Part shown: positions 3,863 through 46,100 of the stretch, one piece after another
Position numbering within the stretch: the first letter of the stretch is position 1
How the letters are laid out: each line of letters begins with the position of its first letter
Virus record (IMG/VR): IMGVR_UViG_3300036835_000437
Direction: 5' to 3' (one strand)
Source: an uncultured virus (IMG/VR IMGVR_UViG_3300036835_000437)
Lineage: Duplodnaviria > Heunggongvirae > Uroviricota > Caudoviricetes
DNA length: 64,000 nt
Made by a program: the position numbers and the translations under genes
The notes under the pieces: generated by a model
Seen by the model: the letters and a program-made list of their open reading frames with translations, nothing else
The model's database searches: none
What the model was told of the DNA's origin: nothing

Positions 3863-4186
3863 ATGGCGCCCGCAGCGAAGAGCGAAGGCGGCGAGACCCT
3901 GCACGAACAGCGCAACCTCACCCCCGAGGAGATCGAGGACCGCACCAAGGCCAAGCTCAAGGCCGACCAGGAACGGTCCGAGAAGGTCGCCGAAGAGCTG
4001 GAAGAGGAGAACGAGAAGGCCAAGGAGCAGGCCAAGAAGGAGGCCGCCGAGGCCAAAGCCGACAAGGACAAGAAGGAAGCCGAAGCGAAGAAGTCTTCCG
4101 CTGCGCCTGCGGCGCAACCCCATGCCCCCCAGGCCGCCTCACACGGCGGCGCCTCCTCGCACGCGGCCAGCGGCGCCAAGAAGTAG
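3863..4186 (+). CDS. Charged, coiled-coil, low-complexity protein
   Basis: AAGGAG RBS; E/K/A-rich. Confidence 0.65.
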   Translation: MAPAAKSEGGETLHEQRNLTPEEIEDRTKAKLKADQERSEKVAEELEEENEKAKEQAKKEAAEAKADKDKKEAEAKKSSAAPAAQPHAPQAASHGGASSHAASGAKK

Positions 4187-4188
4187 CC

Positions 4189-4479
4189 CTAGCCGCCACA
4201 GTTGATGCGCAGGCTGATCGGATCGTCCGGTCGGCCTGCGGTGGTCACGGCAGACGTGACCCCACAGCGCCGGCAACGCACGTAGAGCAATCCCAGCCCG
4301 CGCTCGGGCCACAACACATAGGGTAGCTCACCCCGGCAGCTCGGCAGCCCAGGATGGTGGGCGTCGAGATGCTTGCCATGCGGATAATCCGGGTTGGGAG
4401 ATACTCTCGGCGCCCGCCCACCCTCGCGCGGCTCCCAAGTGATCTCCCAATCGGCAAGCTTAGGGGTAAGATCGCTCAA
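4189..4479 (-). CDS. Small Cys-containing (CxxC) hypothetical protein downstream of TIGR array 2
   Basis: ORF track 4189..4503; plausible TTG start (LSDLTPK) at the last degenerate repeat; CRRC and further Cys; start uncertain. Confidence 0.5.
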   Translation of the reverse strand: MSDLTPKLADWEITWEPREGGRAPRVSPNPDYPHGKHLDAHHPGLPSCRGELPYVLWPERGLGLLYVRCRRCGVTSAVTTAGRPDDPISLRINCGG

Positions 4480-5158
4480 CAGGTTTGGTGCCCTCAACCC
4501 CAATGGCTCGCTCTACTACCGTGGCGCTCTTTCTGTGGGTGGCTCGCTCATAACAAGCGGCGCTCTCCTGGCGACTGGCTCGCTCTACAAGTCTGGTGCT
4601 CTCTCCACATCCGGCTCGCTCACTTCATATGGCGCTCTCAGGCCGGATGGCTCACTCGAACCTGCGTGGTGCCCTCATCTGACGTGGCTCGCTCCTCGTG
4701 ATTGGCGCTCTCCGCTTGCGAGGCTCGCTCGGCCTATTCGGTGCCCTCGACCAGAATGGCTCGCTCAGTGTCTTTGATGCCCTCTCCAGTACTGGCTCGC
4801 TCAAGTCGTGTGGCGCTCTTCCATGATATGGCTCGCTCCTGCCTAATGGCGCTCTCGCCGCTTCTGGGCTCGCTCTCTCTGAATGATGCTCTCGTGGTGC
4901 GTGGCTCGCTCACAGAGATTGGTGCTCTCAGGAGATCAGGCTCGCTCAGACACATTGGCGCTCTCCGACATGATGGCTCGCTCCTGGAGCATGGCACTCT
5001 TCGCCCGACTGGCTCGCTCTGAGATGCTGGTACACTCCCAAGATTGGGCTCGCTCGCTGCGGATGGCGCTCTCATGTGACGTGGCTCGCTCGCTTGTTGC
5101 GGCGCTCTCTTCGACGCTGGCTCGCTCATATCATCTGGCACACTTTCGATCCGTGGCT
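4469..5158 (-). ncRNA. TIGR-like dual-repeat guide RNA array 2 (about 19 units of 36 nt), downstream of tasA
   Basis: Plus strand GGCTCGCTC at 4505, 4541, 4577, 4613, 4649 (variant), 4686, 4722, 4758, 4794, 4830, 4867, 4903, 4939, 4975, 5011, 5047, 5083, 5119 alternates with GGYGCYCTC-type repeats at 4487, 4523 ... 5137. Spacers are unique, 9 nt (two are 10 nt). Terminal repeats at 4469 and 5155 are degenerate. Confidence 0.92.
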
Positions 5159-5963
5159 ACTTCCAGTTCGGTGGCCTGATCTCGTGCGCGTGGCCACCCT
5201 CTTTCGTGAGAATGTACGGCTTGGGCGGCTTCTCTCCGGTGTCGATCTCCCACCACACGCTGTGCAAGTGAGAGAGAAACAGCTTGACCGCCCAGCGCCG
5301 CGCCCGCCCGTCGATCTGTGCCGGCGGGAGATGCCCCGCAGACAGATGCTTGAACGCCTCGGTCGACTTGTTGAACTTCATCGACAGGCGCAGCGCAAGC
5401 TCGGTATTGCCGCCGCTGTCGTTGCGGGCAACCTCGAACGCCTTGCGCTCGCGGTAGAGCTTGCCGTAATAGCAGTCCTCGGCATTGGAGAACTTCATGA
5501 AGCTCTGGCCGATCTTCCAGCACAGGGTCTTGAGTTCGGCATTCCACGGGCGCTTCTCGCCCTTCTTCCACTCGCTCGACGGGTCGAGCCCGGCAAAGCG
5601 CCAGATGTGGCCGACGGTGGGGCACTTCTTGATGTCGATGTGCGCGATCAAACCAGCCGAGATCACCGGGCCGATGCCGTAGATGCCCAGCATCCACTTG
5701 CCGACCTCCTTGCTCTGGGCGTAGCGCCCGAGCGCGGTCTTGAGCTGGCTCTCCAAGAGTTCGTTCTGCTCGGCAAACCACGTCAGCAACAAGTGCGGCT
5801 CCCCGCTCTTGTCGAGGGCGCGTACTTGGTTGCTCGACCGTTTGCGGTCCTCCTGGATGATGTAGTACGCCCCGACCAGAAACCTCGCCTCCTCGTCCGA
5901 CAGCGTGGCGGCGGCGATCTTCAGATCGACCGATAGCTTGGCAACGTGTACCTGCTCGTCCAT
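5157..5963 (-). CDS. tasA: TasA-like Nop-domain RNA-binding protein (TIGR-associated, no nuclease domain; IS110/Nop5 superfamily)
   Basis: N-terminal coiled coil, then WMLGIYGIGPVISAGLIAHID...GHIWRFAGLDP...WNAELKTLCWKIG...YYGKLYRERK...RARRWAVKLFLSHL, matching the Nop/IS110 C-terminal fold. No DEDD RuvC or HNH domain. AAAGGAG RBS. Flanked by 36-nt dual-repeat arrays. Confidence 0.88.
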   Translation of the reverse strand: MDEQVHVAKLSVDLKIAAATLSDEEARFLVGAYYIIQEDRKRSSNQVRALDKSGEPHLLLTWFAEQNELLESQLKTALGRYAQSKEVGKWMLGIYGIGPVISAGLIAHIDIKKCPTVGHIWRFAGLDPSSEWKKGEKRPWNAELKTLCWKIGQSFMKFSNAEDCYYGKLYRERKAFEVARNDSGGNTELALRLSMKFNKSTEAFKHLSAGHLPPAQIDGRARRWAVKLFLSHLHSVWWEIDTGEKPPKPYILTKEGGHAHEIRPPNWK

Positions 5964-6423
5964 GGGACGCTCCTTTCACAGTGGTGCTCTCTTGATGTGG
6001 CGCTCTCTTCGAGAGTGGCTCGCTCGCTTGCGGATGGTGCTCTCGGGCTAGATGGCTCGCTCGGCTGCAACGGTGCCCTCGCTTACAATGGCTCGCTCTG
6101 CGCTAGTGGTGCACTCCTGGTCTGTGGCTCGCTCATGGTTTCCGGCGCTCTCTCGCAGTGTGGCTCGCTCTGGCCTTTGGTTGCCCTCTCCGCAGTTGGC
6201 TCGCTCATAGGGTCTGGTGCGCTCTCTTTAGGTGGCTCGCTCGCGCGGTATGGTGCTCTCGGTCCTCTTTGGCTCGCTCCAGGATCGTGGTGCCTTCCGA
6301 TCAGATGGCTCGCTCGTTCTACGTGGTGCTCTCACATCGCACGGCTCGCTCGAATGGGATGGTGCTCTCATCGCTGATGGCCCGCTCGGTGGAGATGGTG
6401 CGCTCATTCTCAATGGCTCGCTC
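5964..6423 (-). ncRNA. TIGR-like dual-repeat guide RNA array 1 (about 12 units of 36 nt), upstream of tasA
   Basis: GGCTCGCTC at 6017, 6054, 6090, 6126, 6162, 6198, 6234, 6271, 6307, 6343, 6379 (variant), 6415 alternates with GGTGCTCTC-type repeats at 5983, 5999, 6036 ... 6397. Spacers mostly 9 nt. Confidence 0.92.
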
Positions 6424-6703
6424 TTATCTTATCCGCCATCGCGCGGCACTCGTCACCGGCGCGGTCGATATCGGGTGCAATGCCGGTATCGTGTGTTGCT
6501 CCAACATCAAGCATTGCATCGAGCCGTGCCGCCATCCGGTCGAGGAAGGCGGCGGCTTCGGTGAGATCGCATTCAAGCCGCGCGATAATCTCCTTGCGGT
6601 CACATGCCGTCTGATTGCGCAGCTCTAGGTCGGCCCGCAGCTGCTCGACCTCGGCCTTCAGGCGCACGAACTCGTCGGCTTCCTCTGGGCTGATGATGCT
6701 CAT
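6410..6703 (-). CDS. Hypothetical coiled-coil protein whose 3' end overlaps the first TIGR repeat
   Basis: MSIISPEE...KIRASH*; ATGA-coupled to the upstream gene. Confidence 0.6.
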   Translation of the reverse strand: MSIISPEEADEFVRLKAEVEQLRADLELRNQTACDRKEIIARLECDLTEAAAFLDRMAARLDAMLDVGATHDTGIAPDIDRAGDECRAMADKIRASH

Positions 6704-6963
6704 GCCCGCCCCACTTGCGTGGGCCGGACGCCGGACAACACCCACGAGACGATCTCGGGACGGGCGATGTACTCCTTCACCTGCTGGGTAAATATCGCAG
6801 CCTGCATCTCACGCTCTTGCGCACTGGTGCTGGTGGAGATGATGCCGGTAACGACGGCCAGGGTCATCGCCGTCTGCGCGTGCGCGATCGGCACGCCGGC
6901 CAGGACGTGATTGATCGCATCAACCAGCGCCAGCACCTGATCTTGCTCGGCTGTCGTGCTCAT
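6700..6963 (-). CDS. Hypothetical protein (likely leaderless first gene of the TIGR-tas operon)
   Basis: ATG lies 7 nt after a TACACT -10 box; no SD sequence. Confidence 0.55.
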   Translation of the reverse strand: MSTTAEQDQVLALVDAINHVLAGVPIAHAQTAMTLAVVTGIISTSTSAQEREMQAAIFTQQVKEYIARPEIVSWVLSGVRPTQVGRA

Positions 6964-7125: not shown

Positions 7126-7332
7126 CTAATCGACCGCGTTGTACGCCCGCAACGCCGCATGCAGGCCGCTGGCAAGTGCACGACAATCCGCCGCCGCCCT
7201 CCGAAACTCGGGGGCCGCCGCCTGCAGCGAGCGTGCGCTCAGATTATCGAGCCGGCTCGCCATGCCGCGCAGAAAGCCGGCCGCCAGGGTGAGGTTGGCA
7301 ACGAGATGGTCTTCGCGCTCGCGATCGCTCAT
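7126..7332 (-). CDS. Hypothetical protein, paralogue of 6410..6703
   Basis: AAAGGA RBS; shares LTxAAxFLxxMAxRLD...CRAxA. Confidence 0.6.
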   Translation of the reverse strand: MSDREREDHLVANLTLAAGFLRGMASRLDNLSARSLQAAAPEFRRAAADCRALASGLHAALRAYNAVD

Positions 7333-32036: not shown

Positions 32037-32418
32037 GCCCTCCGCAGAACGAGGACAAGCGCATCACCGATGTGGTCGAGCGCGCCACCTTGGCGTGGAT
32101 CGATCAGTACAACCAGATGCTCATCCTGACGGCGCAGGCGCTGCAGCGGCTGCATCTGGCTTTCGATGGGAAGTTCACCCGTGGACCGTAATCTGGAGCT
32201 GGAGCGCTACCTGGACAGCTCGTACCGGCGGGATGTGATGGGCGAATCAGTTAAGGTCGAGGCGCCTGCGGCTACGCCAGAGCTGATCAAGACGGTCAAG
32301 GGCATGATCGCGGGCATTGACGGGCTTCGCCTGGGGGCGAACCTCGCCAATCGGGACTTCGTCACGTACCAGCATCGACGTGCGTTGGAGCGTCTGCTCA
32401 AGCAGCTGGAGGCAAGCC

Positions 32419-35400
32419 GTGCCGCTGACGGCTAAGGGCCAGAAGATACTCTCCAACATGCGGAGCGAGTACGGCGCCGACAAAGGCGAGCGGGTCTTCT
32501 ATGCCTCGCGCAACGCGGGGCGGATCACGGGCGTCGATCCCGGCCACTGGCGCGGCGGCATTGTCGGCTATGCCGAGGGCGGCATCGTCAACCACGATCA
32601 CGATCCTGATCTGCCGCCGATCGAGGATCGCGCCGAGCTGATCCCGCAGACCGAGGGCGCCGGGCCCACCCAAGGTCAGGTGCTGCAAACCATCGAGCTG
32701 TTGAAGCGTAACCGCGACCGCGCCCAGGGCATCGATCAGCTCGATCCAACGCCGCCGCTATTGCGTGGATACTTCCATCGGCCTGACCGCGAGAACCCGC
32801 CTCGGGTTCAGATTCCCAGCCTGCGGCGTCGTCGGTTCGGGCCGTCGCCGGACGGCATCGAGGAGATGTACGACGGCCCAGACAAGGGCTTCGGCCGCTA
32901 CGCGCGCGGCGGGCGCGTCAAGTACTTCGAGGATGGCGGCGGCGGCAGCGACGGCGGCACGGGTGACGCTGGTGGCTGCACCGGTACCGGTGGATGCAGC
33001 GAGGGCAGCTGCTCTGGCATGGGCGGCTGCGGGGGCTGCAGCTGCGCGGGCGCTGGCGGCTGCGCTGGCTGCTCGGGCAGCGCCTGCAGCGGTGGTTGCT
33101 CGTCAGGTGGCGGCTGTAGCGGTTGCTCGGGCGCTGGCGGTGGCGCTGGTGGCTGCAGCGCAGGCGCCGAAGGCGATACCGCAGGCGTCGGTGGCTGTCT
33201 CGGCGGCTGCACGGCTGCGGCTGCTGCGATGGGGGCGCTGGGGGCGGAGGCGACGACCGGGCAGACCGGACAAACGGGGGAAGGAAGGGGCGAGGGAAGA
33301 GGCGGCGGCCCGACTGGGATGGGCCTCGGCTACACGGGCCAGACCGGTCAGACAGGCTTAGGCTGGGGACAGACAGGCGTAGGTTGCGCTTACGCCGCCT
33401 TTGGTCCCGGCGCTGCAGCAGGGTGCCATGCTGTCGGTGGCGGCCCGACGGCGGCAGAGGCATACGCTGGTGGCCCATTCTCGGCGGGCGCGCTTGGCAC
33501 CGCGCACGGTGCGGAGACGGGCGGTCAGTTTGGTGCCAATGCGGGCCTCGGCTATGGCGGCACAGGTCTTGCGGGTACAGGTGCGTTTGGAGCCGAGAGC
33601 ACGGCCGGCGGTGGTGGCACGAACGGCATTGGCGCGGCTGGGGCGTCCTTCGGCGGCTGCGCCAACGCTGGTGCCTGCCTGGGCATGGGAGGAGAGATAT
33701 CGCTCTCACCAGCGGCGGCGGTTAGCCAGGACGTTTCAAGTCGCGGCGGAGATCGCGGCGGCGGCAGCCGAGGCAGCGCTTCGCAGGCGGCGGCTGGTGA
33801 TCGCGGTGGCGCCCCCACTGGCTCTCCTGCCGGGACAGGGGTCGGTGATGTCGGTGATCCTGGGGCTGGCGGTGAGCCATCGGGCGGCCCAAGCGACATC
33901 GGCGGCAACATCGGTGGTGGCCCACAGGGTGGGCCTGCTGCTTCGATCTCCACCGACCAACCCGCCGCCCCAGACCAGCCTGCTGCTCCCGATGATCAGG
34001 GTGGCAAGGGCGGCAAGAGCGGCACGATCGCTGGTTCCGCTCCAGCCGCACCGGCCGCAGGCACCTTCACCGGACAGGTTGGCAACGTCAGCGTCTCGCC
34101 TGCGACTGCCGCGAACACGGGCGGGCTTGCCGGCGGGCTCTACGGCAGCACCGTGGCTGCGGACCCCAGTGTCCCCGGCGGCTTCGCGGAGAAGACCGGC
34201 GACATCGCCCCGGGTTCTTTCGATGTCGGTAATCCCTTCGGCGATCCCAACCAGGGTCTGAGCCCGACCGGCGGGAAGACCGGTGCTGCTCCTGGTGCCG
34301 CTCCCACTGGGCTCGGCAGCGTGGCTGACGTGGGGGAGCACAGCTACTCTCCTGTCGGCAACACTTCGCTCACAGGTCAGAACCCAGGCGGCTGGCAGGG
34401 CAGCGTGTCGCCGGCCGTGTCGCTCAACGACATGACCTTCTCGCCTACTGTTACCGGCGCTCCTCCGGGAGAGTTTACCGGCGGCAGGACCGGCAACATC
34501 GGCATCGGCACCCACGGTAGTGTGGCGCCCGGCGGGGCGACGGACATCAACTCGCTGGCGGCAAGCCCCACTGCTCTGAGCGGCGCTCCCACGGGCTTCT
34601 CTAACCAGACCGGCGGCATGTACGGGCTCAGTGCCGGCTCCGGGGTGACCGGACAGGGTGCCGGTTCGTTCACGGGTGGCCAGAGCGGCGGCGTCGGCAC
34701 GGCAGCCGGTGAAGCGGCGCCGATGGGTGGTGCCAGCCCGGCTGCGTCGATCTCCGATCTCGGTCCAGCTGCGGGAGAGGCGGCCCAGCTCGGCGGTGAG
34801 CCGGCTCCTGGTGGCTCGCGTGGTGGCGGTCGCGGTGGTGAAGCGGCACCGATGGGTGGCGCCTCGCCAGTCGGTGGCGGCTGGACCAGCTCCGGTCGCG
34901 GCGGCGAGGCGGCGGCGCTTGGCGGCGAAGCGCCTGTCGGTGGGACGCCGGCCGGTCTTGCTGCCGGTGAAGCAGCTCCGATGGGTGGTGCTGCGGCCCC
35001 TAGCGGGGGCGGCATTGCTGCCGGCGAGGCTGCGCCGATGGGTGGCGCCACGCCTGCTGGCACCGGCATTGCTGCGGCAGCTGGCGAGGCGGCGCCGCTC
35101 GGTGGTGCCCCTGATCCAGGGCAGGGTCGCGGTGGTGGGCGTGGTGGCGAGGCGGCGCCGATGGGCGGTGCCTTCGGTGGCGTTCCAGCTGGTGGCTGGA
35201 CGAGCAGTGGCCGAGGTGGTGAGGCGGCACCGATGGGTGGTGCTGCGCCAGCGGGCGAAGCGCCGACCGTAGCTGGCGAGGCGGCGCCGATGGGGGGTGC
35301 GCCCGATCCCAGTGGCGGTAGGGCAGGTGCTCAGACGGGCGGTCCTGACTTCAATGCGACGTTTGCTGCAGCCCAGGCGGCGCAAGATCAAGCGATGCAG

Positions 35401-38307
35401 AACAACCTCGACGTCACGATGACGCCGGGATTGGACGAGCGGGCGGCGGCGATACAGGGGAGGGGAGGCTTCCCGGCTCTCGGCACCCAGAGCTTCGCGG
35501 CCACGCCGGTCGGCAACTATGCCGTCGCCAATGCAGAGAACACCCAGGGGCTCTACGGCGGGCAGTACGGCTCGCAGGAACCTGGGGCAGTGGACCTGTC
35601 CTCGGTGGGGATCGCGACCCCCGGTAATATCGGCGGGCTGAGCTTCGGGCCAGGGAACGCCTTCGGCGACCCCAACTACGGCCTGACCAACACCCAGGAC
35701 ATCGGGCAACCCGCTCCAGGCGAGCGAGGTGGTGGCCGCAGTGGTGCGGTTCCGGGCGGCAGCTGGGCCGACCAAACCTTCGGCTCGCTGGCGAACTTCG
35801 GTGGCCTGACTGGCAGCCGTGGCACGACCGGCATTGCCAATATCGGTGCCGCCCAGCAGGGCTATGCCCCCGGCTTCGGCCCGGCGGCGGCGTCCGGCGA
35901 TTGGACCTCGGGTGGCCGTGACGCCACGCTGGGTTGGGGTGCGCCGACCGGGCTGGCTGCGGTTGCGCAGGGCAACCTCGGCGCGCCGATGGAATCGGTT
36001 GCGCCGCAGACGACGCCCGCTGCCGGGCCGGGTGATCGCGGTGGTGGCCGCAGCGGTGGGTTAGACCTCGGCACCACCATTGCATCGGCGCTCGGCATCT
36101 CGCCGGCAGCTGCGCAGGGGCTGTCTGAGGACAGGGCTTCTCTCGGTCCCGCTGCGCAGGTGGGCGCGCCCATGGACCTCGCCCAGGTCGCGCAGCAGAC
36201 CCAGGAGCCCGATGCCAGGAGCCTCGCCAGCGCGATTACCGGATGGTCGGACAAGGACCTCGCGGCTGCGCTCGCTCCTGCCGCCAACACCATCAGCAAC
36301 ATCGGCGGCTGGCTCGGTGCTACGCCGACCGGCGGCTGGTTGGGGCTGGGCACGCCAGCGCAGGCGCAGACGACCGACATGCCGACCTTCGGCTCGACCA
36401 AGGGCTCGTCCGGCTATGGCCCAGGCCAGGGCGGCGCCTGGACGAGTGGCGTGCAGTCAGCAGCCCCTGGCGGTACCCAGAGTGCAGCGCAGGCAGCCGC
36501 TGCGGATCAGGCTCTGTCGCAAGCAGTGGACGAGAGCAAGGCGGCAGCCGGGCCGGGTGGCCCGACCGGTTCGGTCGATCTGGATACGCCAGCGGAGATC
36601 GCCGCGCCGCCGGCCGATCTCGATCCTGCCATGGTGGCGCCGGCCGTGCCTGCGCTTGAGAAGAGCGTCACCGACCCAGAGAAGACGGGCAGTCGCGGTC
36701 TTGGCACGCAGCTCGCGGCAGCGCAGCCGGCGATCGATCCCTATGTCGGCATGCAGCACGACGAGCCTGTCTTCGATCCGACGAAGCCGGTCTCGCCGCC
36801 ACCGCAGCTTGCGCCGCCCCCTGTGACGCCACAGGTGACGCCGCCGCCGGTCAATCCGTTCGACATCACACCCTATCCGTCGCTCACTCCTTTCGGGCCC
36901 AGCCGTGGAGGCGCGACGCTGGCGGCGTATAGCCCCGCTGAAAGGGGCGGCCAGCCCTCGTTCGGCCCGCAGAGCAATCCGTTCTCGGGTCAGCAGACCG
37001 TGCCGGCGGAGCCCGATCCCGGCTTCGAGGCGCCGCAGTCAGAGCGCAGCACGGTCACCAACTCACCGCTCGGCGACCTCGCGCAGACTGCCGAGAACTA
37101 CGCCATGACCACGCAGAGCTTGGCGAACCAGTCGCCCGCGCTGAGCGGCGGTGGCCTCGGTTACGATGTAAGCCCCAGCATCGGCACCCTCAGTCCCGGC
37201 GATGTGACGGTTGATAAGGGCGGTAAGGGTGATCGTGACTCGCAGTCTCCCAACCTTGGTCCTGGTGTCACCGAAGGTGAGCCGTCTGGTCTCGGCGGCA
37301 GGTCGGACCTCGGTCCTAGCGTGCACGCCAGCCCCGGCGTCGACTTTGGCGGGCTGTCTGCCTACTCGTATGGAGACGAACCCATGGGCCTCAATACGCT
37401 CGGCATTGACAGGAGCGGCCAGCAGTGGGGCATCGCCAGCGGCGGCTATGTCAGGCACCGCGCTGGTGGCGGCATCGTCGGCAACTCGATCAAGACGCTG
37501 GTCGACGTCTCGCCCTCGGCAGCGGCCGGGCAGATCGATCAGAACCCTCTCACCGGTTACAACCTCGCGCGCACGTTCCCACCCGACGTGCTCTACGACA
37601 CCTTCGAGGAGGTCGGCCACAACCGGCGCGACCAGAACCCGCCGCAGAACGGCGACGACAGCAACAAGTCTCCGCAGCAGCTGCAGATCACCGTCCCCGG
37701 CGCGAGCGGCGGCGGCACCTTCACCGGCATGGCGCAGGGCGGCTACGTCGATGCGCCGGGTTACTACGCGCCCGGCGGTTTGACCCAGGCCGGCATGCAC
37801 ACGTTCGGCACCCAGGCGCATTACAGCGGCGCCAACGTGCGGCCGGCGATCGGTCGCCAACCCGGCGTGCATCTGATCAGCTCTGACGTTCCTGGGCGTA
37901 CCGATCGTATCCCGCAGCGGGCCAAGCCCGGGAGCTACGTGCTGCCGGCTGACGTCGTCTCGGGCCTGGGCCAGGGCAACACCATGGCCGGCGCCAAGAT
38001 GTGGGGACAGGCGATCATGGCAGCGGCTGGGCCAGCCGGCGCCGGCACCATGGGCGCGATGCGGCGCGGTTCGATGCCGATGGCGCGGCGTCCTGGTGCG
38101 CGCGGCTTTGCCGATGGCGGCCCTGTCGAGGACGAGTACGTGCCGATCGTGACAGCGGGCGGCGAGGTGCTGATCGACCCGGAGTTCGTTGAGGCGCTCG
38201 GGAACGGCAGTGAGATGCTGGGCAAGCGCAAGCTCGCCGAATCCGTTCTCAACGTGCGCAAGCAAACGATCGCACATCTCAAGAGCCTACCGAGGCCGGT
38301 GAAGTAG
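32419..38307 (+). CDS. Giant (about 1960 aa) Gly/Ala-rich putative internal/ejection protein
   Basis: GGAGG RBS before GTG 32419 (MPLTAKGQKILSNMRSEYG); Cys-Gly tract, GEAAPMGG repeats, C-terminal PGRTDRIP...GSYVLPADVVS domain. Confidence 0.75.
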   Translation: MPLTAKGQKILSNMRSEYGADKGERVFYASRNAGRITGVDPGHWRGGIVGYAEGGIVNHDHDPDLPPIEDRAELIPQTEGAGPTQGQVLQTIELLKRNRDRAQGIDQLDPTPPLLRGYFHRPDRENPPRVQIPSLRRRRFGPSPDGIEEMYDGPDKGFGRYARGGRVKYFEDGGGGSDGGTGDAGGCTGTGGCSEGSCSGMGGCGGCSCAGAGGCAGCSGSACSGGCSSGGGCSGCSGAGGGAGGCSAGAEGDTAGVGGCLGGCTAAAAAMGALGAEATTGQTGQTGEGRGEGRGGGPTGMGLGYTGQTGQTGLGWGQTGVGCAYAAFGPGAAAGCHAVGGGPTAAEAYAGGPFSAGALGTAHGAETGGQFGANAGLGYGGTGLAGTGAFGAESTAGGGGTNGIGAAGASFGGCANAGACLGMGGEISLSPAAAVSQDVSSRGGDRGGGSRGSASQAAAGDRGGAPTGSPAGTGVGDVGDPGAGGEPSGGPSDIGGNIGGGPQGGPAASISTDQPAAPDQPAAPDDQGGKGGKSGTIAGSAPAAPAAGTFTGQVGNVSVSPATAANTGGLAGGLYGSTVAADPSVPGGFAEKTGDIAPGSFDVGNPFGDPNQGLSPTGGKTGAAPGAAPTGLGSVADVGEHSYSPVGNTSLTGQNPGGWQGSVSPAVSLNDMTFSPTVTGAPPGEFTGGRTGNIGIGTHGSVAPGGATDINSLAASPTALSGAPTGFSNQTGGMYGLSAGSGVTGQGAGSFTGGQSGGVGTAAGEAAPMGGASPAASISDLGPAAGEAAQLGGEPAPGGSRGGGRGGEAAPMGGASPVGGGWTSSGRGGEAAALGGEAPVGGTPAGLAAGEAAPMGGAAAPSGGGIAAGEAAPMGGATPAGTGIAAAAGEAAPLGGAPDPGQGRGGGRGGEAAPMGGAFGGVPAGGWTSSGRGGEAAPMGGAAPAGEAPTVAGEAAPMGGAPDPSGGRAGAQTGGPDFNATFAAAQAAQDQAMQNNLDVTMTPGLDERAAAIQGRGGFPALGTQSFAATPVGNYAVANAENTQGLYGGQYGSQEPGAVDLSSVGIATPGNIGGLSFGPGNAFGDPNYGLTNTQDIGQPAPGERGGGRSGAVPGGSWADQTFGSLANFGGLTGSRGTTGIANIGAAQQGYAPGFGPAAASGDWTSGGRDATLGWGAPTGLAAVAQGNLGAPMESVAPQTTPAAGPGDRGGGRSGGLDLGTTIASALGISPAAAQGLSEDRASLGPAAQVGAPMDLAQVAQQTQEPDARSLASAITGWSDKDLAAALAPAANTISNIGGWLGATPTGGWLGLGTPAQAQTTDMPTFGSTKGSSGYGPGQGGAWTSGVQSAAPGGTQSAAQAAAADQALSQAVDESKAAAGPGGPTGSVDLDTPAEIAAPPADLDPAMVAPAVPALEKSVTDPEKTGSRGLGTQLAAAQPAIDPYVGMQHDEPVFDPTKPVSPPPQLAPPPVTPQVTPPPVNPFDITPYPSLTPFGPSRGGATLAAYSPAERGGQPSFGPQSNPFSGQQTVPAEPDPGFEAPQSERSTVTNSPLGDLAQTAENYAMTTQSLANQSPALSGGGLGYDVSPSIGTLSPGDVTVDKGGKGDRDSQSPNLGPGVTEGEPSGLGGRSDLGPSVHASPGVDFGGLSAYSYGDEPMGLNTLGIDRSGQQWGIASGGYVRHRAGGGIVGNSIKTLVDVSPSAAAGQIDQNPLTGYNLARTFPPDVLYDTFEEVGHNRRDQNPPQNGDDSNKSPQQLQITVPGASGGGTFTGMAQGGYVDAPGYYAPGGLTQAGMHTFGTQAHYSGANVRPAIGRQPGVHLISSDVPGRTDRIPQRAKPGSYVLPADVVSGLGQGNTMAGAKMWGQAIMAAAGPAGAGTMGAMRRGSMPMARRPGARGFADGGPVEDEYVPIVTAGGEVLIDPEFVEALGNGSEMLGKRKLAESVLNVRKQTIAHLKSLPRPVK

Positions 38308-38940
38308 ATGAGAGTGCTCTACAACATGGACAGCGGTGTGCCCGGCGTGCGTCTCGCCACCAAGAAGGACGAGGGTGAGATATTCGGCCTGCTCATCATG
38401 CTGCATGCCGAGAACGGCTTCTTCACCATGAACCGCGACAAGGTGATTGCCGGCATTCAGCACGCGACCGAGCGGCGCGGCGGCATCATCTACGTCATCG
38501 ACGAGGGGCCGAGAGTCGTTGCGACTCTAGGGATGACGATCTCGGTCGATTGGTACAGCGATGACGAGTACCTGCACGAGCGCTGGAACTTCGTGCACCC
38601 AGACTATCGCAAGAGCGACTATGCCAAGAGGCTATTGAACCAAGCGATGTGGTCGCACGAATGGTTCAAGGCGCACGGCAAGCTGATGCCGTTCTACTGC
38701 GGGATCAACTCGCTGGAGCGCACCGAGGCGAAGATCAGGATGTACGCGCGCCACATGCCACTGATCGGCGCCTACTTCGCCTACGGCATGGCGCCGCGTC
38801 AGCAGGAAGCTACCGCGCAGGAGATGCGCGCGATCGAGGAACGGACGCGCAAGAGCAACGCTGCACACACCAGAGAGGTCCGTCCGGCAGTGGAGACGTT
38901 GATTCGCGTCACTCAGCGCCAGGAGGAAAGCCATGTGTAA
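38308..38940 (+). CDS. GNAT-fold acetyltransferase-like protein
   Basis: VRLAT..D, FVHPDYRKS.YAKRLL acetyl-CoA-binding-like motif. Confidence 0.65.
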   Translation: MRVLYNMDSGVPGVRLATKKDEGEIFGLLIMLHAENGFFTMNRDKVIAGIQHATERRGGIIYVIDEGPRVVATLGMTISVDWYSDDEYLHERWNFVHPDYRKSDYAKRLLNQAMWSHEWFKAHGKLMPFYCGINSLERTEAKIRMYARHMPLIGAYFAYGMAPRQQEATAQEMRAIEERTRKSNAAHTREVRPAVETLIRVTQRQEESHV

Positions 38941-41900
38941 GAGCGGCGGCGGCTCACCTCCTGTCCCGAGCGCGTCTTCGACCACGTTCAACTCTACGGT
39001 CACGCCCAATGCGCCGGCCGGCGCGCTCTACACCGACTTCCTGAACCGCGCCAACGCGCTGTCCAATACGCCGTTCAACCCGGCGATGCTGGGCTCGGTG
39101 GCGCCGATGAACGCGCAGCAGCTGCAGGGCGGCAATCAGCTGTTCACCCTCGGCATGGACATGGGTACCTTCCATCCCGAGCAGGTAAAGGCGCTCGAGT
39201 CGCCCTACACCGAGGACGTGGTTAACGCCACGCAGAACTGGTTCAACAACCAGAATGCGATCCAGGGCAATGACTTGATCAGCCAAGCCATCCGCTCTGG
39301 CAATGCCTTCGGCGGCGACCGAGCCGGCGTTGCCGAGGGCATCCTCGCCGGGCAGCAGCAGCTGGCGCAGGCTCCGGTGATCGCGGGACTGAGACAGGCC
39401 GGCTACACCCAGGCGCTGGACGAGTACAACAAGCTCAAGCAGTTCGGCATCCAGGGCGCTGGCGCGGCGCTGGGTTGGGGCGGCTTGCTGCAGCAGCAAT
39501 CGCAGCGCGAGCTGGATGTCGCGCAGCAGAACGCGATGCTGTCGTCGGCCTATCCGTTCCAGACCATGAACTGGTACGGCTCGATCCTTGGTGGCATCGC
39601 GCCGCTGCTTGGCACGACGGCGTCAGGCGCCAACAATCCGCCCACCGCTGGCGGCACCGGCCTCGGTGCTGCGAGTGCGGCGGTCGGCCTGGGCACCGCA
39701 GCGCTCGGCGCCTTCGGCGGTGGCGGCACTGCTGGTCCCGGTCAGAAGGATGGCGGCATCGTGGGCCGCGCGCGCGGCGGCATCGTCGGCCCCTACCGGT
39801 TTGGCGGTCTCGTCGGTCACTACGACGATGGCGGCGATGTCTTCGGCAGTGAGCCGCTCGGTGGCCCGAGCGACATCGGTTACCGGACAGACGACGACGA
39901 TCGGCCCAGCAGGAGCGAGGAGCCGCCGCCGTCCAGGTCTACGTCCTCGCCCCGTCTGGCGCCGACGACGGCGACCAGCGCGGGCGGCAGCTGGGGGCGC
40001 AACGTCGGGCAGCTGAAGACCTCGGCCCGGCAGCTGCCGCAGCCGGTGTTCCCGAGCACGGGCGGTGGTGGCAGCACGACGCAGCCGAAGAGTGAGGCCG
40101 AGCAATGGATGAACCTGGGTACGTCGGCGATCAAGCTTGGCGCTGCGGCGGCGCCCTACCTTGCGATGCTGTCCGACCCCAAGACCAAGACCGACGTGCA
40201 GCGTGTCGGCAGGACCGATGACGGCGAGCCACTGTATGGCTTCCGCTACAAGGGCGACCCGAAGACCTACCCGAAGGTGGTCGGGCCGATGGCCGTGCCT
40301 CACCACGCCGAAGGCGGGCGTGTTCGCAAGCAGTTCGATCCGGTGGGAGACCCAGGCCCTGGCGGGCTGTGGGGCTGGTCGCTCTCACATCTGCCGCGCG
40401 GCAAAGAGATGTTCGGGATGCGCTCCGAGGCCACGCAGGCCGAGATGGCGCGCAGAGGGATCGCGGCGAACCCGCCGCCTTCCATCCTGGAAAGCATTAT
40501 CAGTCCGCAGTCTTCGAGCGTCAGAGACGCGATACGCCGGGGCCACATCGAGTCATTGCAGCAGACCGGGGAGGACTATCGCCCTGAACGCCGATTCGCG
40601 TGGGGTGGTGGCGTGCCGCATCTGCGACACGGTGGCTTTGGCGGCCACCAAGCGAGTGAAGGTGAGGAGGAGGCTCTTATAGGTACGCGGCTGCGCCAGC
40701 TGGGCTTTGCGCGTGGCGGGCTTGTCAACTACTACGACGACGGCGGTGATGTTGATGAACCGCTCACGATGACTGACCTGGGTGTGCTCAGCCCTGGTGG
40801 ACGTGCCTTACCGGAGAGCATCTCTGGTCCTGTGCGCGGTTCGCCCGGTGGATTACCGGAGCAGGCCGCAGATATGCCTAACCTTGCACGGGTACGCGAG
40901 CGCTTCCGTCCTGTGCTGGAGAACGACCCCAAGCTCGCCCGGCAGTTCGACATCAACACGACGGCCGAGGTTGGTACGGACCCCAATGCGAGGAGAGCCT
41001 ATCAGGCGCTGACGCTGGATCGTGCTGCAGCTCGTGGTGAGAGCCTGCCCTACACCTTGAGCCGGGGGCCGGGCACGCCCGACCGGTACTATCCTGGTAC
41101 GACCACCAACGCGACCCGACCGTCCGGGATGGGCGTGGCGCCCTCGATCTGGATGGGCGCCAATCCGGTGAACTTCGCCACCGGCAACGCTAGTTACGAC
41201 CCCAAGACCGGGCGTTATGTGGGCTTCGCAGGTGGGCCGCAGACCGGCTCGGTCGCGACCGGCAGCGGTACCGAGTATGCCGGCATCGAGGGGCCCGACC
41301 TCGCTGCTGCGCGGCGCTTCGGCTACACGGGTCCATCGAGTACGGGGATTGGCCCACGCGGGCCACAGGGCACACAGGCGATCTCCGCCAAGATGGTCGA
41401 TGAGGGCGGCGACCGGGGCGAGAAGTCTGCTGCCGGTCCTGAGACCCGCAGCAGCGCTGAGCGCACCGGCAGCACGCAGCCAAGCTTGCGGTCTGATCGG
41501 ACGGTGGACGCCCTCGCCAAGCCGGCGCCGACCTTTGCCCAGAGGCTGGCGACCAACCCGTTCTGGCAGTTTGGAACGGCTCTAATGGCACGGCCTGGGA
41601 TCAAGGGTCGTGAGGGGCAAGCCATCGGTTCCGCCCTGGAGAGCATGACCTCGCAGCAGCTCAAGGAGCGCAACCGGGTGCTCGATGAGAAGCCGCAGAT
41701 GATCACCCGCCCCGACGGCAGCGTCCACTTCTTGAACAGCGAGGGTCGGCTGACCCAGGTGTTCGGGCCGGATGCGACCAGGACGGCGGTGGAGAAGCGC
41801 GCACAGGAGAAGTGGGACGTCGAGAAGGCTACGCCCAACACGCTCAAGGTCCAGAAGCGCGGGCCCTTCGGTTCGACTACGACAGAGGAGGTTCCCTACA

Positions 41901-43102
41901 CCATCAGTCCAGACGGCACGGTCAAGCCCTTCGCCATACCCGGACAGGAGCAGCCGCCGGCTCAGCCACCTGCACAGCAGCCGCCGCAACGGCAGCAGCC
42001 GCAGGAGCCTCCAGCTGAGCCGCCGCCGGCCGAGCCGCCCGCGTCACCGCCTCCGCCGGCACAGCCAGCACCCAACGCGCCGGCAGTGCCGTCGGTGAAG
42101 GCGCCGACCATCCGCCAGTCTGAGACGCAGCCACAGCCACAGCCGCAGCAGGCCGCGACCGGCCCCGCCAACATCGAGAGGCGCACACAGCAGGCGTGGG
42201 AGAACGGGCAGGTCGCTCCGATTGGAACCGTCACCAATCCTGGCGCGGGACAGCGCAACGAGAGTGCGCTGCAGGGGCTAACCCCGGATGAGCAGCGCAT
42301 CGTCAAGGGGATTGCCGACTATACCATTGATCCCAACAAGGTGTTCACCGGCAAGAAGGGGGCAGAGCAGCGTCCGGCCGCCATCAACAAGGTGATGGAA
42401 TACGACCCGGGCTACGACGCGAAGAACTTCCCCACCCGCTCGCAGGCGCTGAAGGAGTTCGGGGTCAATGGCCAGTCCAGGAAGAACCTTGAGTCGAACA
42501 GCATGGTGCTTGAGCATGCTGGCGACCTGATGACGGCGATCGAGAAGCTCAACAACTACACCTACGCGCCGGGCATCATGAACCCGATCACCGGCAAGTT
42601 CTCGGAGCAGACCGATCCTAAGTATCAGGCGGCTCTGGCGGAGTTCAGGACCGCAGCTACTGGTGTCGCGACCGAGATGGGTAAGACGTTTCGTGGCGTC
42701 GGCTCGATGAGCGAGCGGGAGGTTAAGCACTGGGAGGGGATCATCGCCGGTCAGTACGACAGCCCGGTTGCATTGCGGGCCGCGATCAAGACTGGTGTCG
42801 GCATGGTGTTGGGACGCACCAACGCAATCGCCAACGCGCACAACATTGCGATGGGCCCGCAGTACGAACGTGACGGCGAGAGCTTCCTCGCTCCCAAGGC
42901 GAGGGAGACGATCGCGCGCGCCAATGCCATGGACCCGGAGAAGCCTTCTCCGCCGTCGCGGTTCGGCGTGACGCCAGATAAGCCGAGCGGCGGCGCTGGA
43001 GAGCCGGTTAGGGTTCAGTCGCCCGCTGAGGCGCTCAAGCTCCCGCCCGGCACCCCCATCATCATGCCTGACGGCAGAACCGGTACGGTGCCGCAGAGGT
43101 AG
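38933..43102 (+). CDS. Large DNA ejection/pilot-type protein
   Basis: MCKSGGGS...T N-terminus, SPYTEDVVNAT, AFGGDRAGV, QQQSQRELD...YP (pilot-protein-like); internal S74-like SD..K motif. Confidence 0.7.
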   Translation: MCKSGGGSPPVPSASSTTFNSTVTPNAPAGALYTDFLNRANALSNTPFNPAMLGSVAPMNAQQLQGGNQLFTLGMDMGTFHPEQVKALESPYTEDVVNATQNWFNNQNAIQGNDLISQAIRSGNAFGGDRAGVAEGILAGQQQLAQAPVIAGLRQAGYTQALDEYNKLKQFGIQGAGAALGWGGLLQQQSQRELDVAQQNAMLSSAYPFQTMNWYGSILGGIAPLLGTTASGANNPPTAGGTGLGAASAAVGLGTAALGAFGGGGTAGPGQKDGGIVGRARGGIVGPYRFGGLVGHYDDGGDVFGSEPLGGPSDIGYRTDDDDRPSRSEEPPPSRSTSSPRLAPTTATSAGGSWGRNVGQLKTSARQLPQPVFPSTGGGGSTTQPKSEAEQWMNLGTSAIKLGAAAAPYLAMLSDPKTKTDVQRVGRTDDGEPLYGFRYKGDPKTYPKVVGPMAVPHHAEGGRVRKQFDPVGDPGPGGLWGWSLSHLPRGKEMFGMRSEATQAEMARRGIAANPPPSILESIISPQSSSVRDAIRRGHIESLQQTGEDYRPERRFAWGGGVPHLRHGGFGGHQASEGEEEALIGTRLRQLGFARGGLVNYYDDGGDVDEPLTMTDLGVLSPGGRALPESISGPVRGSPGGLPEQAADMPNLARVRERFRPVLENDPKLARQFDINTTAEVGTDPNARRAYQALTLDRAAARGESLPYTLSRGPGTPDRYYPGTTTNATRPSGMGVAPSIWMGANPVNFATGNASYDPKTGRYVGFAGGPQTGSVATGSGTEYAGIEGPDLAAARRFGYTGPSSTGIGPRGPQGTQAISAKMVDEGGDRGEKSAAGPETRSSAERTGSTQPSLRSDRTVDALAKPAPTFAQRLATNPFWQFGTALMARPGIKGREGQAIGSALESMTSQQLKERNRVLDEKPQMITRPDGSVHFLNSEGRLTQVFGPDATRTAVEKRAQEKWDVEKATPNTLKVQKRGPFGSTTTEEVPYTISPDGTVKPFAIPGQEQPPAQPPAQQPPQRQQPQEPPAEPPPAEPPASPPPPAQPAPNAPAVPSVKAPTIRQSETQPQPQPQQAATGPANIERRTQQAWENGQVAPIGTVTNPGAGQRNESALQGLTPDEQRIVKGIADYTIDPNKVFTGKKGAEQRPAAINKVMEYDPGYDAKNFPTRSQALKEFGVNGQSRKNLESNSMVLEHAGDLMTAIEKLNNYTYAPGIMNPITGKFSEQTDPKYQAALAEFRTAATGVATEMGKTFRGVGSMSEREVKHWEGIIAGQYDSPVALRAAIKTGVGMVLGRTNAIANAHNIAMGPQYERDGESFLAPKARETIARANAMDPEKPSPPSRFGVTPDKPSGGAGEPVRVQSPAEALKLPPGTPIIMPDGRTGTVPQR

Positions 43103-43104
43103 CG

Positions 43105-46100
43105 ATGGCCGAAGACCCCTGGGCGGCGTTCAATCCGCAGCCGGCGCCCCAGGCGAGGGCCGATGATCCGTGGGCGCAGTTCAATCCGCAACCCGCACCT
43201 AAGCCGGAAGAGCGCAGCGTGTTGCGTCGCGCCTTGGAGGCGCCGATCGAGAGCATCAAGGAGAGCGGGCAGGCGATTGCCAAGCCATTCATTCCGCCGA
43301 AGACCAAGGAGGAGCTGGCGGAGAGGAGAGGTCCCATCGCCGGCCTCGGCGAGACTGGCAGCGCCATTCTCAGCGCGGCCGGCGCGATCCCAGGCGCGAT
43401 CCTCTCGCCGGTCCAGTCCTTGGTCTCGTCCGGTCTGGCGGCGATCACCCCGGGTGAGAAGACCTCCGAGCAGAAGTACCAGGAGTGGATGCCCAAGGTG
43501 GGCACCGCCTTCATGGGGCTCGGTCGCTCGCCGGGTATTGCTGGTGCTGGCAAGTTCCCGATGCCCGACCCGATCCTGGAGCGGGTGAAGAAGGTCCCCG
43601 CCCAGACCAAGGAGGCCGAGGTCGGGCGCTTCCTGGAGAGCCAAGCCACTGATCCCGACAAGCTGCGCGCCGATCTCGCGGCGCCGGGCCAAGAGATCGT
43701 GCCGGGCTCCCAGCCCACCACACACCAGCTCACCGGGCAGCTCGGGCAGCAGGAGCGGGTCGCGGCGCGCACCGACCCGGAGATGGTGGAGAAGTTCAAG
43801 CAGCGGCAGGCCGCCCAGAACCGTGCCCGCCAGGAGGCCTTCGAGGGCGCCGAGGGCACGGGCTCGCCGGCCCAGGTCTCGCAGCACCTGCGCAACGAGC
43901 TGAACCGGGAGAACGCCGCCAACGAGCAGGCGATCCGGGTCGCCGAGCAGCAGGCCTTCGATGCCCAGCAGCGGCTTGGCGCCGAGTACGACCCCACTGT
44001 CATGGGCGAGCGCATGCGCCGCGAGATCGAGATCGCGGAAGCGGCGGCGCGTGAGCGTGAGCGTGGGCTGTGGGAACAGGTCAACCCCGACGGCACATTG
44101 GTTGCTGATCCCGCCGGCATCCAAGCGGTCGAACGGGGCATATACAGCCCCGCAAGGATGACACCCACGGCACGGGCGGGGGTCTCCCAGGCTGAGGGGG
44201 AGATCAGCAACCTTATCCAGAACTACGGGCGCTACATCCCGTTCCAGGAACTCACCGACCTGCGCTCGCTGGTGTCGACCAGGATGCGGGAAGAGCGCAT
44301 GGCGCGCGGCGCCAACTCACCGTCGTTTGCGCGCCTCGTAAGACTTCGTCAGGGCATCGAGGACGCGCTGGTGTCGAGCGTGTCGGACGTGCGGCCAGAG
44401 GGAGTGGCGCGCGGTGCCGGTGCCATCGGTGCCCAGGAGCGGGTGCAGGCGGCGAGTGCAGCGACCAGGGAGCGCGCGCAGCAGTTCAATCCGTTGCGGA
44501 ACATCACCCGCAGCGAGGCGGGCGAGGCCTACAAGATGGGCCCGTCCTCGGTCCCAGGGAAGATCGTGCAGCCTGGGGCCAAGGGCTACGACAGCGTGTC
44601 GAACTACCTGCGCGCTGTCGGTAATGACGCCGGCATGTCCACGGTGCAGGACGCGCTGCTTGCTCGCGTGCGCGCCGAGGTGTTCGACCGCGCCGGCACG
44701 CCGCAGCAGGCACAGAACAGGCTTGAGGGCTTCTTCCGGCGTTACGGGGACACGCTGCGCGCCATTGACGAGCGCGACGGCGGAGCGTTCTCGCAGCAGC
44801 TGCGCAATGCTGGGGGCGCCCAGGGTGCCGTTGAAGCTGCGCAGCTACGGCAACGGACGGCGCAAGCCACACAAGCCACCGACCAGTTCAAGAAGCTGAC
44901 CGGCCTCACCGAGGACGCCGACATCGCCAGCGCGGTTGGCAACATCTTCGGCAAGCAGGACTCCGTGCAGCGCGCGGCCGAGCTGATGCGTCGGCTCGGT
45001 GGCAACCCTGCGGCGCAGGAGGGTGCCCGCCGTGCTGTCATCCAGCACATGCGTAACGTCCTGACCGGCGACGTGCTGGTGGGCGATACGCCCAACGTGC
45101 GGGCGCAGGCGTTCCAGAAGTATGTGCGGCTCAACAAGCCCGCGCTGCAGCAGATACTGCGTCCCGAGCAGATGGAAACCCTGGAGCTGATCGCGCGCGA
45201 TCTGCTGCGTGAGACCCGTACGAACCAGACCAAGGCTGTGGGTGGCGGCTCCGACACCTATCAGATGTTCAAGGCCGGCGAGAAGAAGGAGGGCGTGGTC
45301 AGGGGCATTGCCAAGAAGCTCACGAGCCCGCTGGTGGGCAAGGTCATCACGCACTGGCTAGCTGGCACCTTCGGTGGACCGGCGGCGTCGGTGGCGCTGG
45401 CGGTGGGCGAGGGCGGCATAGAGGCCGCCAGGGCGGCGCGAGCCGGGCGCAGGGCGCAGGAGGCCATCGACATCCAGCGCATGATCGATGAGGCCATGCT
45501 CGATCCTGCTAAGGCGAAAGAGTATCTCGGCAAGACCCACACCTACAAAGCAAGGACCCCAGGTGCAAAGGCAATCCTCGGATATGAAGCGGGTGCAGCC
45601 GAGAAACAGCGGCAGCAGCTACCAACACGCCAGACGGGCGGCGCGGTTCCTGCGCTTGGCGGCACAGGAGGGCGATCCCCAGGAGCGCGCGAGGTTGCTC
45701 GATCTCGCCAAGCACGCCCTGGGTCAACGCAAGCTCTACAGGATGGTGGAGAAGCGGGGAACCAAGAAGCCCGTGCGCAAGGTGGCCGCGAGCGCCTCGG
45801 CGCCGCGCTGAGCAGCGCTGGTCCGTTCGGCGGTTCGCCTGCCGGTGGCGGCGAGATGACCGGCGGCACGTTCAAGACCAGGGCCAAGGGCCCAGAGCCG
45901 CTGACCCGCCAGAAGGTGGTCGATACCCTCAAGCAACACGGCGTCACCGATCCCGAGGTGCTCAAGGGCTGGACCGAAGGCTGGCCCCATACCGCTGAGT
46001 CGCGTGCTGAGGGTGGTGGCGTCAAGCGCAGGCTCCCCGAGGGGCTGTCACAGACAGACGTGGATGCAGCGCTGCATGGCCCGGGCTGGGAGAGGATACC

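Follow-up and report, generated by a model that had tools for sequence, protein, structure and literature searches.

The 64,000-nucleotide stretch of DNA analysed here (the window; IMG/VR record IMGVR_UViG_3300036835_000437) belongs to a tailed phage and carries, on its minus strand, two arrays of short alternating repeats on either side of a gene for a 268-residue protein. The cassette is very probably a dual-repeat TIGR-TasA system, organized as a self-contained array-tasA-array accessory unit of an uncultivated soil tailed phage. It is a member of an already published family and not a new system. TIGR-Tas systems were defined by Faure et al. 2025 (PMC12045711), and a dual-repeat array is composed of two alternating 8–12-nt repeats and spacers of about 9 nt in a 36-nt unit, positioned beside a tas gene. 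The original prediction, made from the sequence of the window, assigned the locus to TIGR-Tas and to the TasA subtype, and both assignments are borne out by the family model and fold matches described below.

The coordinates of the arrays, tasA, and edge repeats are given for the minus strand of the window. Array 1 (6423..5973) is positioned upstream of tasA and contains 12 guide units, as read from the sequence and from column statistics. It ends with an edge repeat truncated at its 3' end, GAGCGTCCC (5972..5964), which abuts the ATG of tasA (5963..5157), so that the array continues straight into the gene. Array 2 (5127..4478), downstream of tasA, is formed of 18 guide units and is closed by another 3'-truncated edge repeat, GAGCGATCT (4477..4469), identified by reading the sequence. 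A candidate leader half-unit (5145..5128) can also be read between the tasA stop codon and the first edge repeat of array 2. It consists of a degenerate loop-like repeat, AAGTGTGCC (5145..5137), followed by a 9-nt spacer, AGATGATAT (5136..5128). The earlier estimate of about 12 and about 19 units is correct for array 1 and one unit too high for array 2, in which 18 full units were found. The stop codon of the upstream open reading frame (ORF) 6410..6745 falls within the first unit of array 1.

Nine units of array 1 are 36 nt long, two are 37 nt long (units 5 and 11), and unit 12 is an irregular 53-nt unit with an additional loop-type repeat after a 7-nt spacer. In array 2, 16 units have 36 nt and two have 37 nt (units 8 and 13). 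The 30 units of both arrays thus include 25 of 36 nt, four of 37 nt, and one of 53 nt, and a period of 36 was called at both arrays by Tandem Repeats Finder. The exact 9-mer GAGCGAGCC is present in 28 copies across the two arrays, compared to a chance expectation of approximately 0.008 copies for a given 9-mer in 2 kb (our own arithmetic). Its copies follow each other in steps of 36–37 nt with two exceptions: one of 53 nt, which leads to the degenerate last repeat of array 1, and one of 73 nt, over a copy with one mismatch in array 2.

Column statistics calculated from the 25 units of exactly 36 nt separate the repeats from the spacers. Columns 1–9 and 19–27 are conserved, whereas columns 11–18 and 29–36 contain almost no information. 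The edge repeat has the sequence GAGCGAGCC and the loop repeat the sequence GAGRGCRCC; behind each come an A-biased position (20 of 25 units have A there after the edge repeat, and 19 of 25 after the loop repeat) and eight variable bases. Both types of repeats open with GAG and close with CC and then an A. No two of the 60 spacers are alike. The 36-nt period, the minus-strand units with GAGRGCRCC, and the non-identical spacers of the original prediction therefore agree with the column statistics. Two details of it have to be corrected. An A directly after the CC was found in 28 of the 36 array 2 spacers, not in 30 of 38 (20 of 24 in array 1, and 48 of 60 in total). Furthermore, the CCA motif had been called box-D-like; the TIGR literature assigns CCA to box C and uses box D for the UG with which the repeat starts. 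The edge repeat has GCGAGCCA in common with the experimentally studied TaTIGR, ParTIGR, and SpTIGR arrays.

A CRISPR array was considered and rejected, because the locus contains two alternating repeats of 9–10 nt with spacers of 8–9 nt, as opposed to one repeat of 25–36 nt with spacers of similar size. An Rfam search of the arrays with E-values up to 1 returned no family, CRISPR repeats included.

The protein encoded between the arrays is a member of the Tas family without a nuclease domain. It matches the curated equivalog model NF052498 of NCBIfam (TIGR_Tas_endo, "TIGR-Tas system RNA-guided endonuclease") with an E-value of 1.3e-59 and a score of 201.8 bits, at a cutoff of 100. Searches of solved chains with the single sequence identified TasR (9mty_A, E-value 1.8e-13) and TasH (21kl_A, 6.9e-10), and a profile built from 34 relatives matched the same chains in the PDB with E-values of 4.2e-22 and 6e-13, respectively. 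The profile also matches the IS110-type recombinases IS621 and ISCro4 (3.2e-4 and 5.5e-3). The intact tasA ORF keeps all 38 columns that are invariant in the alignment of the 34 relatives, and every sequence motif quoted in the original prediction is present in it.

The AlphaFold model of TasA has a mean pLDDT of 87.6 and a pTM of 0.83. In a Foldseek search with the model, the first ten matches are all cryo-EM chains of TasH or TasR, followed by IS110 recombinases. A Foldseek-independent comparison with VIA-align superimposed residues 21–268 of the model onto residues 66–309 of TasH (Z-score 19.2), and the model onto residues 110–322 of TasR (Z-score 18.3). ISCro4 followed with a Z-score of 12.5, and the next matches were generic coiled coils with a Z-score of 9.3. 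The coiled-coil helices of TasA are formed by residues 23–52 and 58–83, and approximately 20 N-terminal residues remain outside the alignment to TasH and TasR. The alignment is restricted to the coiled-coil and Nop part and starts after the nuclease domains of TasH and TasR, and TasA is therefore without a nuclease domain. In agreement with the original prediction of neither a RuvC nor an HNH domain, no nuclease family was identified in TasA by Pfam at E-values up to 10. A Tas protein without a nuclease is called TasA by Faure et al. 2025 (PMC12045711). The NCBIfam name "RNA-guided endonuclease" is ill-suited to the product of 5157–5963, which has no such domain.

According to PMC13421893, SpTasH matures its own guides using Y289 and H296. 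These residues are part of the segment RPLYVQEKLGH of SpTasH, the counterpart of which in TasA is KPYILTKEGGH, with Y250 and H258, in a conserved C-terminal loop. P249 and H258 are nearly invariant among the 34 relatives. Judged from this alignment, the Y/H RNA-processing pair is retained in TasA. The loop has low pLDDT in the model and is probably flexible. A preprint (Xu et al. 2026, 10.64898/2026.09.09.750476) describes the Y/H pair as typical of dual-repeat systems.

The protein has been catalogued before. An identical 268-residue sequence is present in five rows (744, 747, 748, 769, and 773) of the sheet ProteinInfo in Table S1 of Faure et al. 2025, the sheet being headed as listing "all TIGR systems" (PMC12045711). 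One of the five rows agrees with the window in gene coordinates and strand. The table also contains the TasA variant of L002, where the L-numbers are labels of related loci fetched for comparison.

The window has a GC content of 64.7% and encodes a terminase, portal, major head protein, tail fibre, endolysin, Erf, exonuclease, and helicase, which identify it as part of a tailed phage. The terminase relatives with sequence identities of 72–96% are all metagenomic, some of them on contigs of about 70–74 kb, and the phage therefore belongs to a group of uncultivated soil phages. No tRNA genes were found in the window. The DNA of the locus had no match in the phage collection, and a scan of genome contigs with the single TasA protein was also without a match. 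A scan of the genome contigs with the TasA profile identified 50 loci distributed over many phyla. The best of these relatives is only 59% identical to TasA, and the 50 loci thus provide no clue to the host.

The cassette is an accessory element in this group of phages. Among 68 loci around relatives of the terminase and helicase, TasA is encoded in only two, the same phage and the contig of L002. In L149 (6281–7266) and L171 (4908–6032), about 1 kb of other DNA takes the place of window positions 4090–6958. The comparison of the window with L002 showed that only the array-tasA-array segment is conserved, whereas the flanking genes differ. The absence from siblings, together with the sharing of array-tasA-array alone with L002, indicates that the cassette is a self-contained accessory unit at a variable site of the genome. 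At this site, the sibling phages encode several small minus-strand ORFs that end with AADCRA.A.KLRGE(T/S) and contain AAFLD; the window ORFs 6410–6745 and 7126–7332 belong to the same paralogous family.

Arrays of this kind recur beside relatives of tasA. Of 39 viral loci that encode a relative of TasA, 35 contain at least one 6-mer recurring at a spacing of 34–38 nt. With a stricter pattern, arrays of this repeat type were detected in 33 loci (17 viral and 16 genomic), always on the strand of tas. A second contig of the same phage, L001, has identical arrays, with two mismatches in 11,963 bases. L002 (5665–7480), in which TasA is 90% identical, has four of the 30 guides of the window in common, with 15–17 of 18 spacer bases matching; 200 shuffles gave an expectation of none at 15 or more bases. 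In the four shared guides, 9, 8, 9, and 9 of the nine bases of spacer B match, compared to 8, 7, 6, and 6 of the nine bases of spacer A. One of the shared guides is unit 1 of the upstream array in the window and unit 1 of the downstream array in L002. Most of the guides were replaced between the window and L002; in the few that persist, spacer B is conserved and spacer A has drifted.

Several further differences among arrays were observed. L005 (6817–7960) and L007 (6817–7996) have identical tas genes, and L007 exceeds L005 by one unit, which duplicates the adjacent unit in tandem except for a single base change in spacer B. Units near this duplication have one half-spacer in common. The tas genes of L027 and L028 are 98.2% identical, and their arrays have no unit in common. 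Within the arrays of the window, one pair of half-spacers sharing at least seven of eight bases was found, compared to 0.31 expected, a count reached in 531 of 2000 shuffles. In the soil DNA run X4, searched with window positions 4300–6700, a variant contig joins position 6423 to 5154 through 26 other letters, in an L002-like arrangement. Two more contigs of X4 skip 114 and 188 nt within array 1; this evidence is weak, as their short sides have 29 nt. The GAGCG of the truncated edge repeat that closes the upstream array gives GGAG 4–7 nt before the tas start in L002, L008, and L056, and in L010 the tas reading frame begins inside the array.

All steps of the mechanism proposed below, beyond membership in the family, are derived from experiments on relatives. 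The locus would be transcribed leftward, probably together with the small upstream genes. A TasA dimer, joined through the coiled coil, would bind the edge and loop repeats at their box C (CC-A) and box D (G-AG) ends. TasA would then cut within each edge repeat through its own Y250/H258, giving about 30 RNAs of 36 nt. The binding of 36-nt RNAs by TasA has already been published, and a TasA structure is reported in a preprint by Guan et al. 2026 (10.64898/2026.08.11.744272). The predicted mature guide is AGCCA-N8-GAGRGCRCCA-N8-GAGCG; this form was chosen because the synthetic tigRNA1 of TaTasR, listed in the oligonucleotide table of the supplement of Faure et al. (PMC12045711), starts with AGCCA and ends with UGCG. 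Each RNA-protein complex may open a DNA site of 16–18 bp, with spacer A and spacer B pairing to opposite strands, so that the target strand would read 5'-spacer A followed by the reverse complement of spacer B-3'. The same supplement gives the optimized target strand of TaTasR as spacer A and then the reverse complement of spacer B, and the geometry of the tigRNA1 and target oligonucleotides was therefore used in the target searches. The bound complex, without a nuclease, is expected to block transcription or replication instead of cutting. MbTasA is described by Xu et al. (10.64898/2026.09.09.750476) as an RNA-guided transcriptional repressor. The targets of the phage system would most likely be host DNA or DNA of foreign mobile elements, and not the phage itself or its close siblings.

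There are indications of how the locus may be expressed. In a soil metatranscriptome run, contigs without mismatches cover window positions 4631–4781 and 5048–5276. One is located inside array 2 and the other spans the 3' end of tasA into array 2, a hint at transcription of the locus, with tasA and array 2 perhaps sharing one RNA. The sequence GAGCGTCCC together with the preceding G forms GGAG 6 nt ahead of the ATG of tasA, and the truncated last edge repeat of array 1 probably doubles as the ribosome-binding site of the gene. It is conceivable, if doubtful, that TasA cuts after GAGCG in this repeat and thereby parts the ribosome-binding site (GGAGCG) from the tasA frame. The maturation of the last guide would detach the site, and TasA would thus limit its own synthesis.

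The guides were compared with several sets of DNA. In the window with the arrays masked, the best self-targets match 15 of 18 bases and occur three times, compared to 3.62 expected from mispaired spacers, and none match at 16 or more. The guides had no matches at 15 or more bases to the arrays themselves in the correct geometry (0.28 expected). Three matches were found in the wrong geometry, compared to 0.97 expected, all of them a spacer matching itself and part of the adjacent repeat. An all-against-all comparison of 337 guides from 28 loci with 801,821 bases gave no match at 16 of 16 bases (about 0.4 expected) and 19 at 15 of 16, compared to about 18 expected by our own arithmetic. The search of sibling phages covered 65 loci with 852,083 bases. 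The guides of the window had no exact match in this DNA and three matches at 15 of 16 bases, compared to 1.93 for mispaired spacers and two for the wrong order; the guides of L002 had no exact match and one at 15 of 16, compared to 1.28. The lack of guide matches in the phage and in 0.85 Mb of sibling DNA speaks against self-regulation and sibling exclusion, for the parts searched.

IMG/VR was scanned with the four guides that the window and L002 have in common, with the outer A and T required, which may be too strict. Guide a1_1 gave 24 matches at about 14 independent sites with GC contents of 29–60%, compared to 25 for the wrong-order control. Guides a1_9, a1_3, and a1_2 gave one, one, and four matches, respectively. 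The counts of all four guides are at chance level. The composition of the spacers differs from that of the phage: the spacer cores have a GC content of 52.3%, compared to 64.7% for the phage. Spacers are GC-poorer than their own locus in 27 of 29 loci (the window and 28 loci with the same repeat type), and the spacer cores are near 50% GC regardless of the genome. The low GC content would fit either targets with more AT (promoters, for example) or a restriction on guide composition.

Several observations weigh against a functional dual-repeat TIGR-TasA system. No DNA target was found beyond the controls in the phage, its siblings, or IMG/VR. The support from the RNA run consists of assembled contigs, which are blind to strand, ends, and processing, and DNA carry-over is possible. 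The distance between Y250 and H258 is eight residues, compared to seven in SpTasH and most relatives. The A of box C is substituted in 12 of 60 repeats. Chains of Nop5, Nop56, and Prp31 are absent among the Foldseek matches listed and among the 50 entries listed from the wide VIA-align search, the latter being filled by coiled-coil matches, so that absence from it carries no weight. Scans with an E. coli-type consensus, which may not fit the host, detected neither a promoter-like site on the minus strand nor a terminator-like site directly behind array 2.

It is possible, but rather unlikely, that the same TIGR-TasA system acts in another manner, by recruiting or assisting another factor, such as integrase, partition, or replication proteins, or by blocking the replication of a competing element. 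Options of this kind are raised by Faure et al. (PMC12045711), who also note occasional ParB-like neighbours. The cassette occupies a variable, accessory part of the phage genome, a position typical for genes involved in conflicts, and the fast turnover of guides, with four of 30 common to L002 despite the 90% identity of TasA, is in line with such a role. However, the difference in flanking genes between the window and L002 shows that no partner gene travels with the cassette, and Pfam scans of 30 ORFs near the locus identified no ParB, integrase, or repressor domain. In addition, a TasA protein alone was enough for repression in E. coli, as stated by Xu et al. (10.64898/2026.09.09.750476).

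A decaying relic, that is, a formerly active cassette from which functional guides are no longer made, is very improbable. The irregular unit 12 of array 1, the four 37-nt units, the repeats lacking the A of CCA, and the empty target searches could be read as signs of decay. They are opposed by the intact ORF with all of its invariant family columns, the 28 exact copies of the edge repeat, the identical arrays on the second contig of the same phage, the identical protein on five catalogued contigs, and the coverage of the locus by contigs from an RNA library.

The remaining two explanations are refuted for practical purposes. The first, a remnant of an IS110-family transposase next to unrelated tandem repeats, draws on names and on a weak match. 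Pfam Transposase_20 matches TasA with an E-value of 6.7e-4, PHROG 4285, which is matched by TasA, carries the label "transposase", and several relatives are named IS116/IS110/IS902 transposases by JGI. However, the 20.4 bits of the Transposase_20 match are below the cutoff of 21.3 bits, and there is no match to DEDD_Tnp. The IS110 model NF033542 of NCBIfam scores 19.2 bits (cutoff 140), compared to 201.8 bits for the TIGR-Tas model. TasA does not have an N-terminal DEDD/RuvC-like domain, since about residue 20 of the model aligns onto residue 125 of ISCro4, and the dual-repeat TIGR anatomy recurs beside homologues in the 33 loci. The transposase names of Pfam and PHROG are older labels of the shared RNA-binding domain. 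The second, translation of the arrays into a protein of 12-residue repeats, is suggested by the 36-nt period, equal to 12 codons, and by open stretches of up to 134 codons inside the arrays, but there are stops in all six frames of both arrays (1–5 in array 1 and 3–8 in array 2), the four 37-nt units shift the frame, the variable blocks have no codon-like pattern, the five array ORFs are without a Pfam match, and L002 keeps the repeats while 26 of the 30 spacer pairs are unrelated.

The dual-repeat TIGR-TasA cassette of the window is most similar in its architecture to the systems of FpTasA (Flavonifractor plautii) and MbTasA. In these, as here, a solo coiled-coil and Nop protein with a C-terminal Y/H loop is accompanied by 36-nt dual-repeat units in arrays that lie both before and after tas. 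The presence of arrays on either side of the gene is noted by Xu et al. 2026 (10.64898/2026.09.09.750476), who report 6,685 arrays. The FpTIGR repeats, AGTGTACC and AGTAACCC, differ from those of the window. In contrast to FpTasA and MbTasA, the copy in the window is known from its sequence alone, within a 64-kb stretch of phage genome.

The best structural match, the SpTIGR-TasH system of Salicola phage CGphi29 (PDB 21kl, 9w03, and 9w04), is also borne by a phage. Its edge repeat AAGCGAGCCA is nearly equal to the GAGCGAGCCA of the window, both arrays have 10-nt repeats with eight variable bases, and the two proteins have the Y...GH processing motif in common. However, SpTasH carries an HNH nuclease at its N-terminus (residues 1 to about 65), a domain missing from TasA, and the identity of the proteins is only about 20–26%. 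SpTIGR has one downstream array that ends with a clear hairpin and T-run terminator, unlike the two arrays of the window. The similarity of TasA to TaTasR (PDB 9mty) and ParTasR, for which the Z-score was given above, extends over the coiled-coil and Nop part. The edge repeat of TaTIGR and ParTIGR, UGCGAGCCA (UGCG/AGCCA), has GCGAGCCA in common with that of the window. TasR possesses a RuvC nuclease (residues 1 to about 110), which TasA lacks. Box D is UG in the TaTasR and ParTasR systems and AG after a conserved G in the window, and each spacer has nine variable bases in the former, compared to eight and one A-biased position in the latter.

More distant relationships involve the RNA-binding domain. 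Its fold is common to TasA and the IS110 bridge-RNA recombinases IS621 (PDB 8wt6) and ISCro4 (PDB 9t56). The recombinases use a DEDD catalytic domain and a single bridge RNA, whereas TasA has no DEDD domain and its RNA is an array of short guides. In the literature, Nop5 and Nop56/58, core proteins of archaeal and eukaryotic box C/D small nucleolar ribonucleoproteins, have a Nop domain, a coiled-coil dimer, and two-guide RNAs with boxes C and D, as in Tas. The box C/D particles direct RNA methylation through fibrillarin and L7Ae, which have no counterpart in the system of the window.

As a discovery the cassette has limited weight, since TIGR-Tas was published in 2025, is covered by a curated NCBI model, and includes this very protein in its founding catalogue. 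Its value is as an example for two open questions of the field: what the guides of phage TasA proteins target, and how the arrays gain guides. New here are the status of the locus as an accessory cassette in comparison with siblings, the target searches with controls, and the comparison of guides with L002.

Two features of the window outside the cassette were observed. The region 32317–48891, with a GC content of up to 71%, contains three plus-strand ORFs of 1996, 1389, and 1928 residues. They have no significant Pfam family and only faint PHROG matches, to virion structural proteins and proteins of DNA ejection. Their products are probably located inside the virion or involved in ejection. 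The contig of L001, from the viral collection, stops exactly at window position 1, which may be the end of the genome or a shared assembly break.

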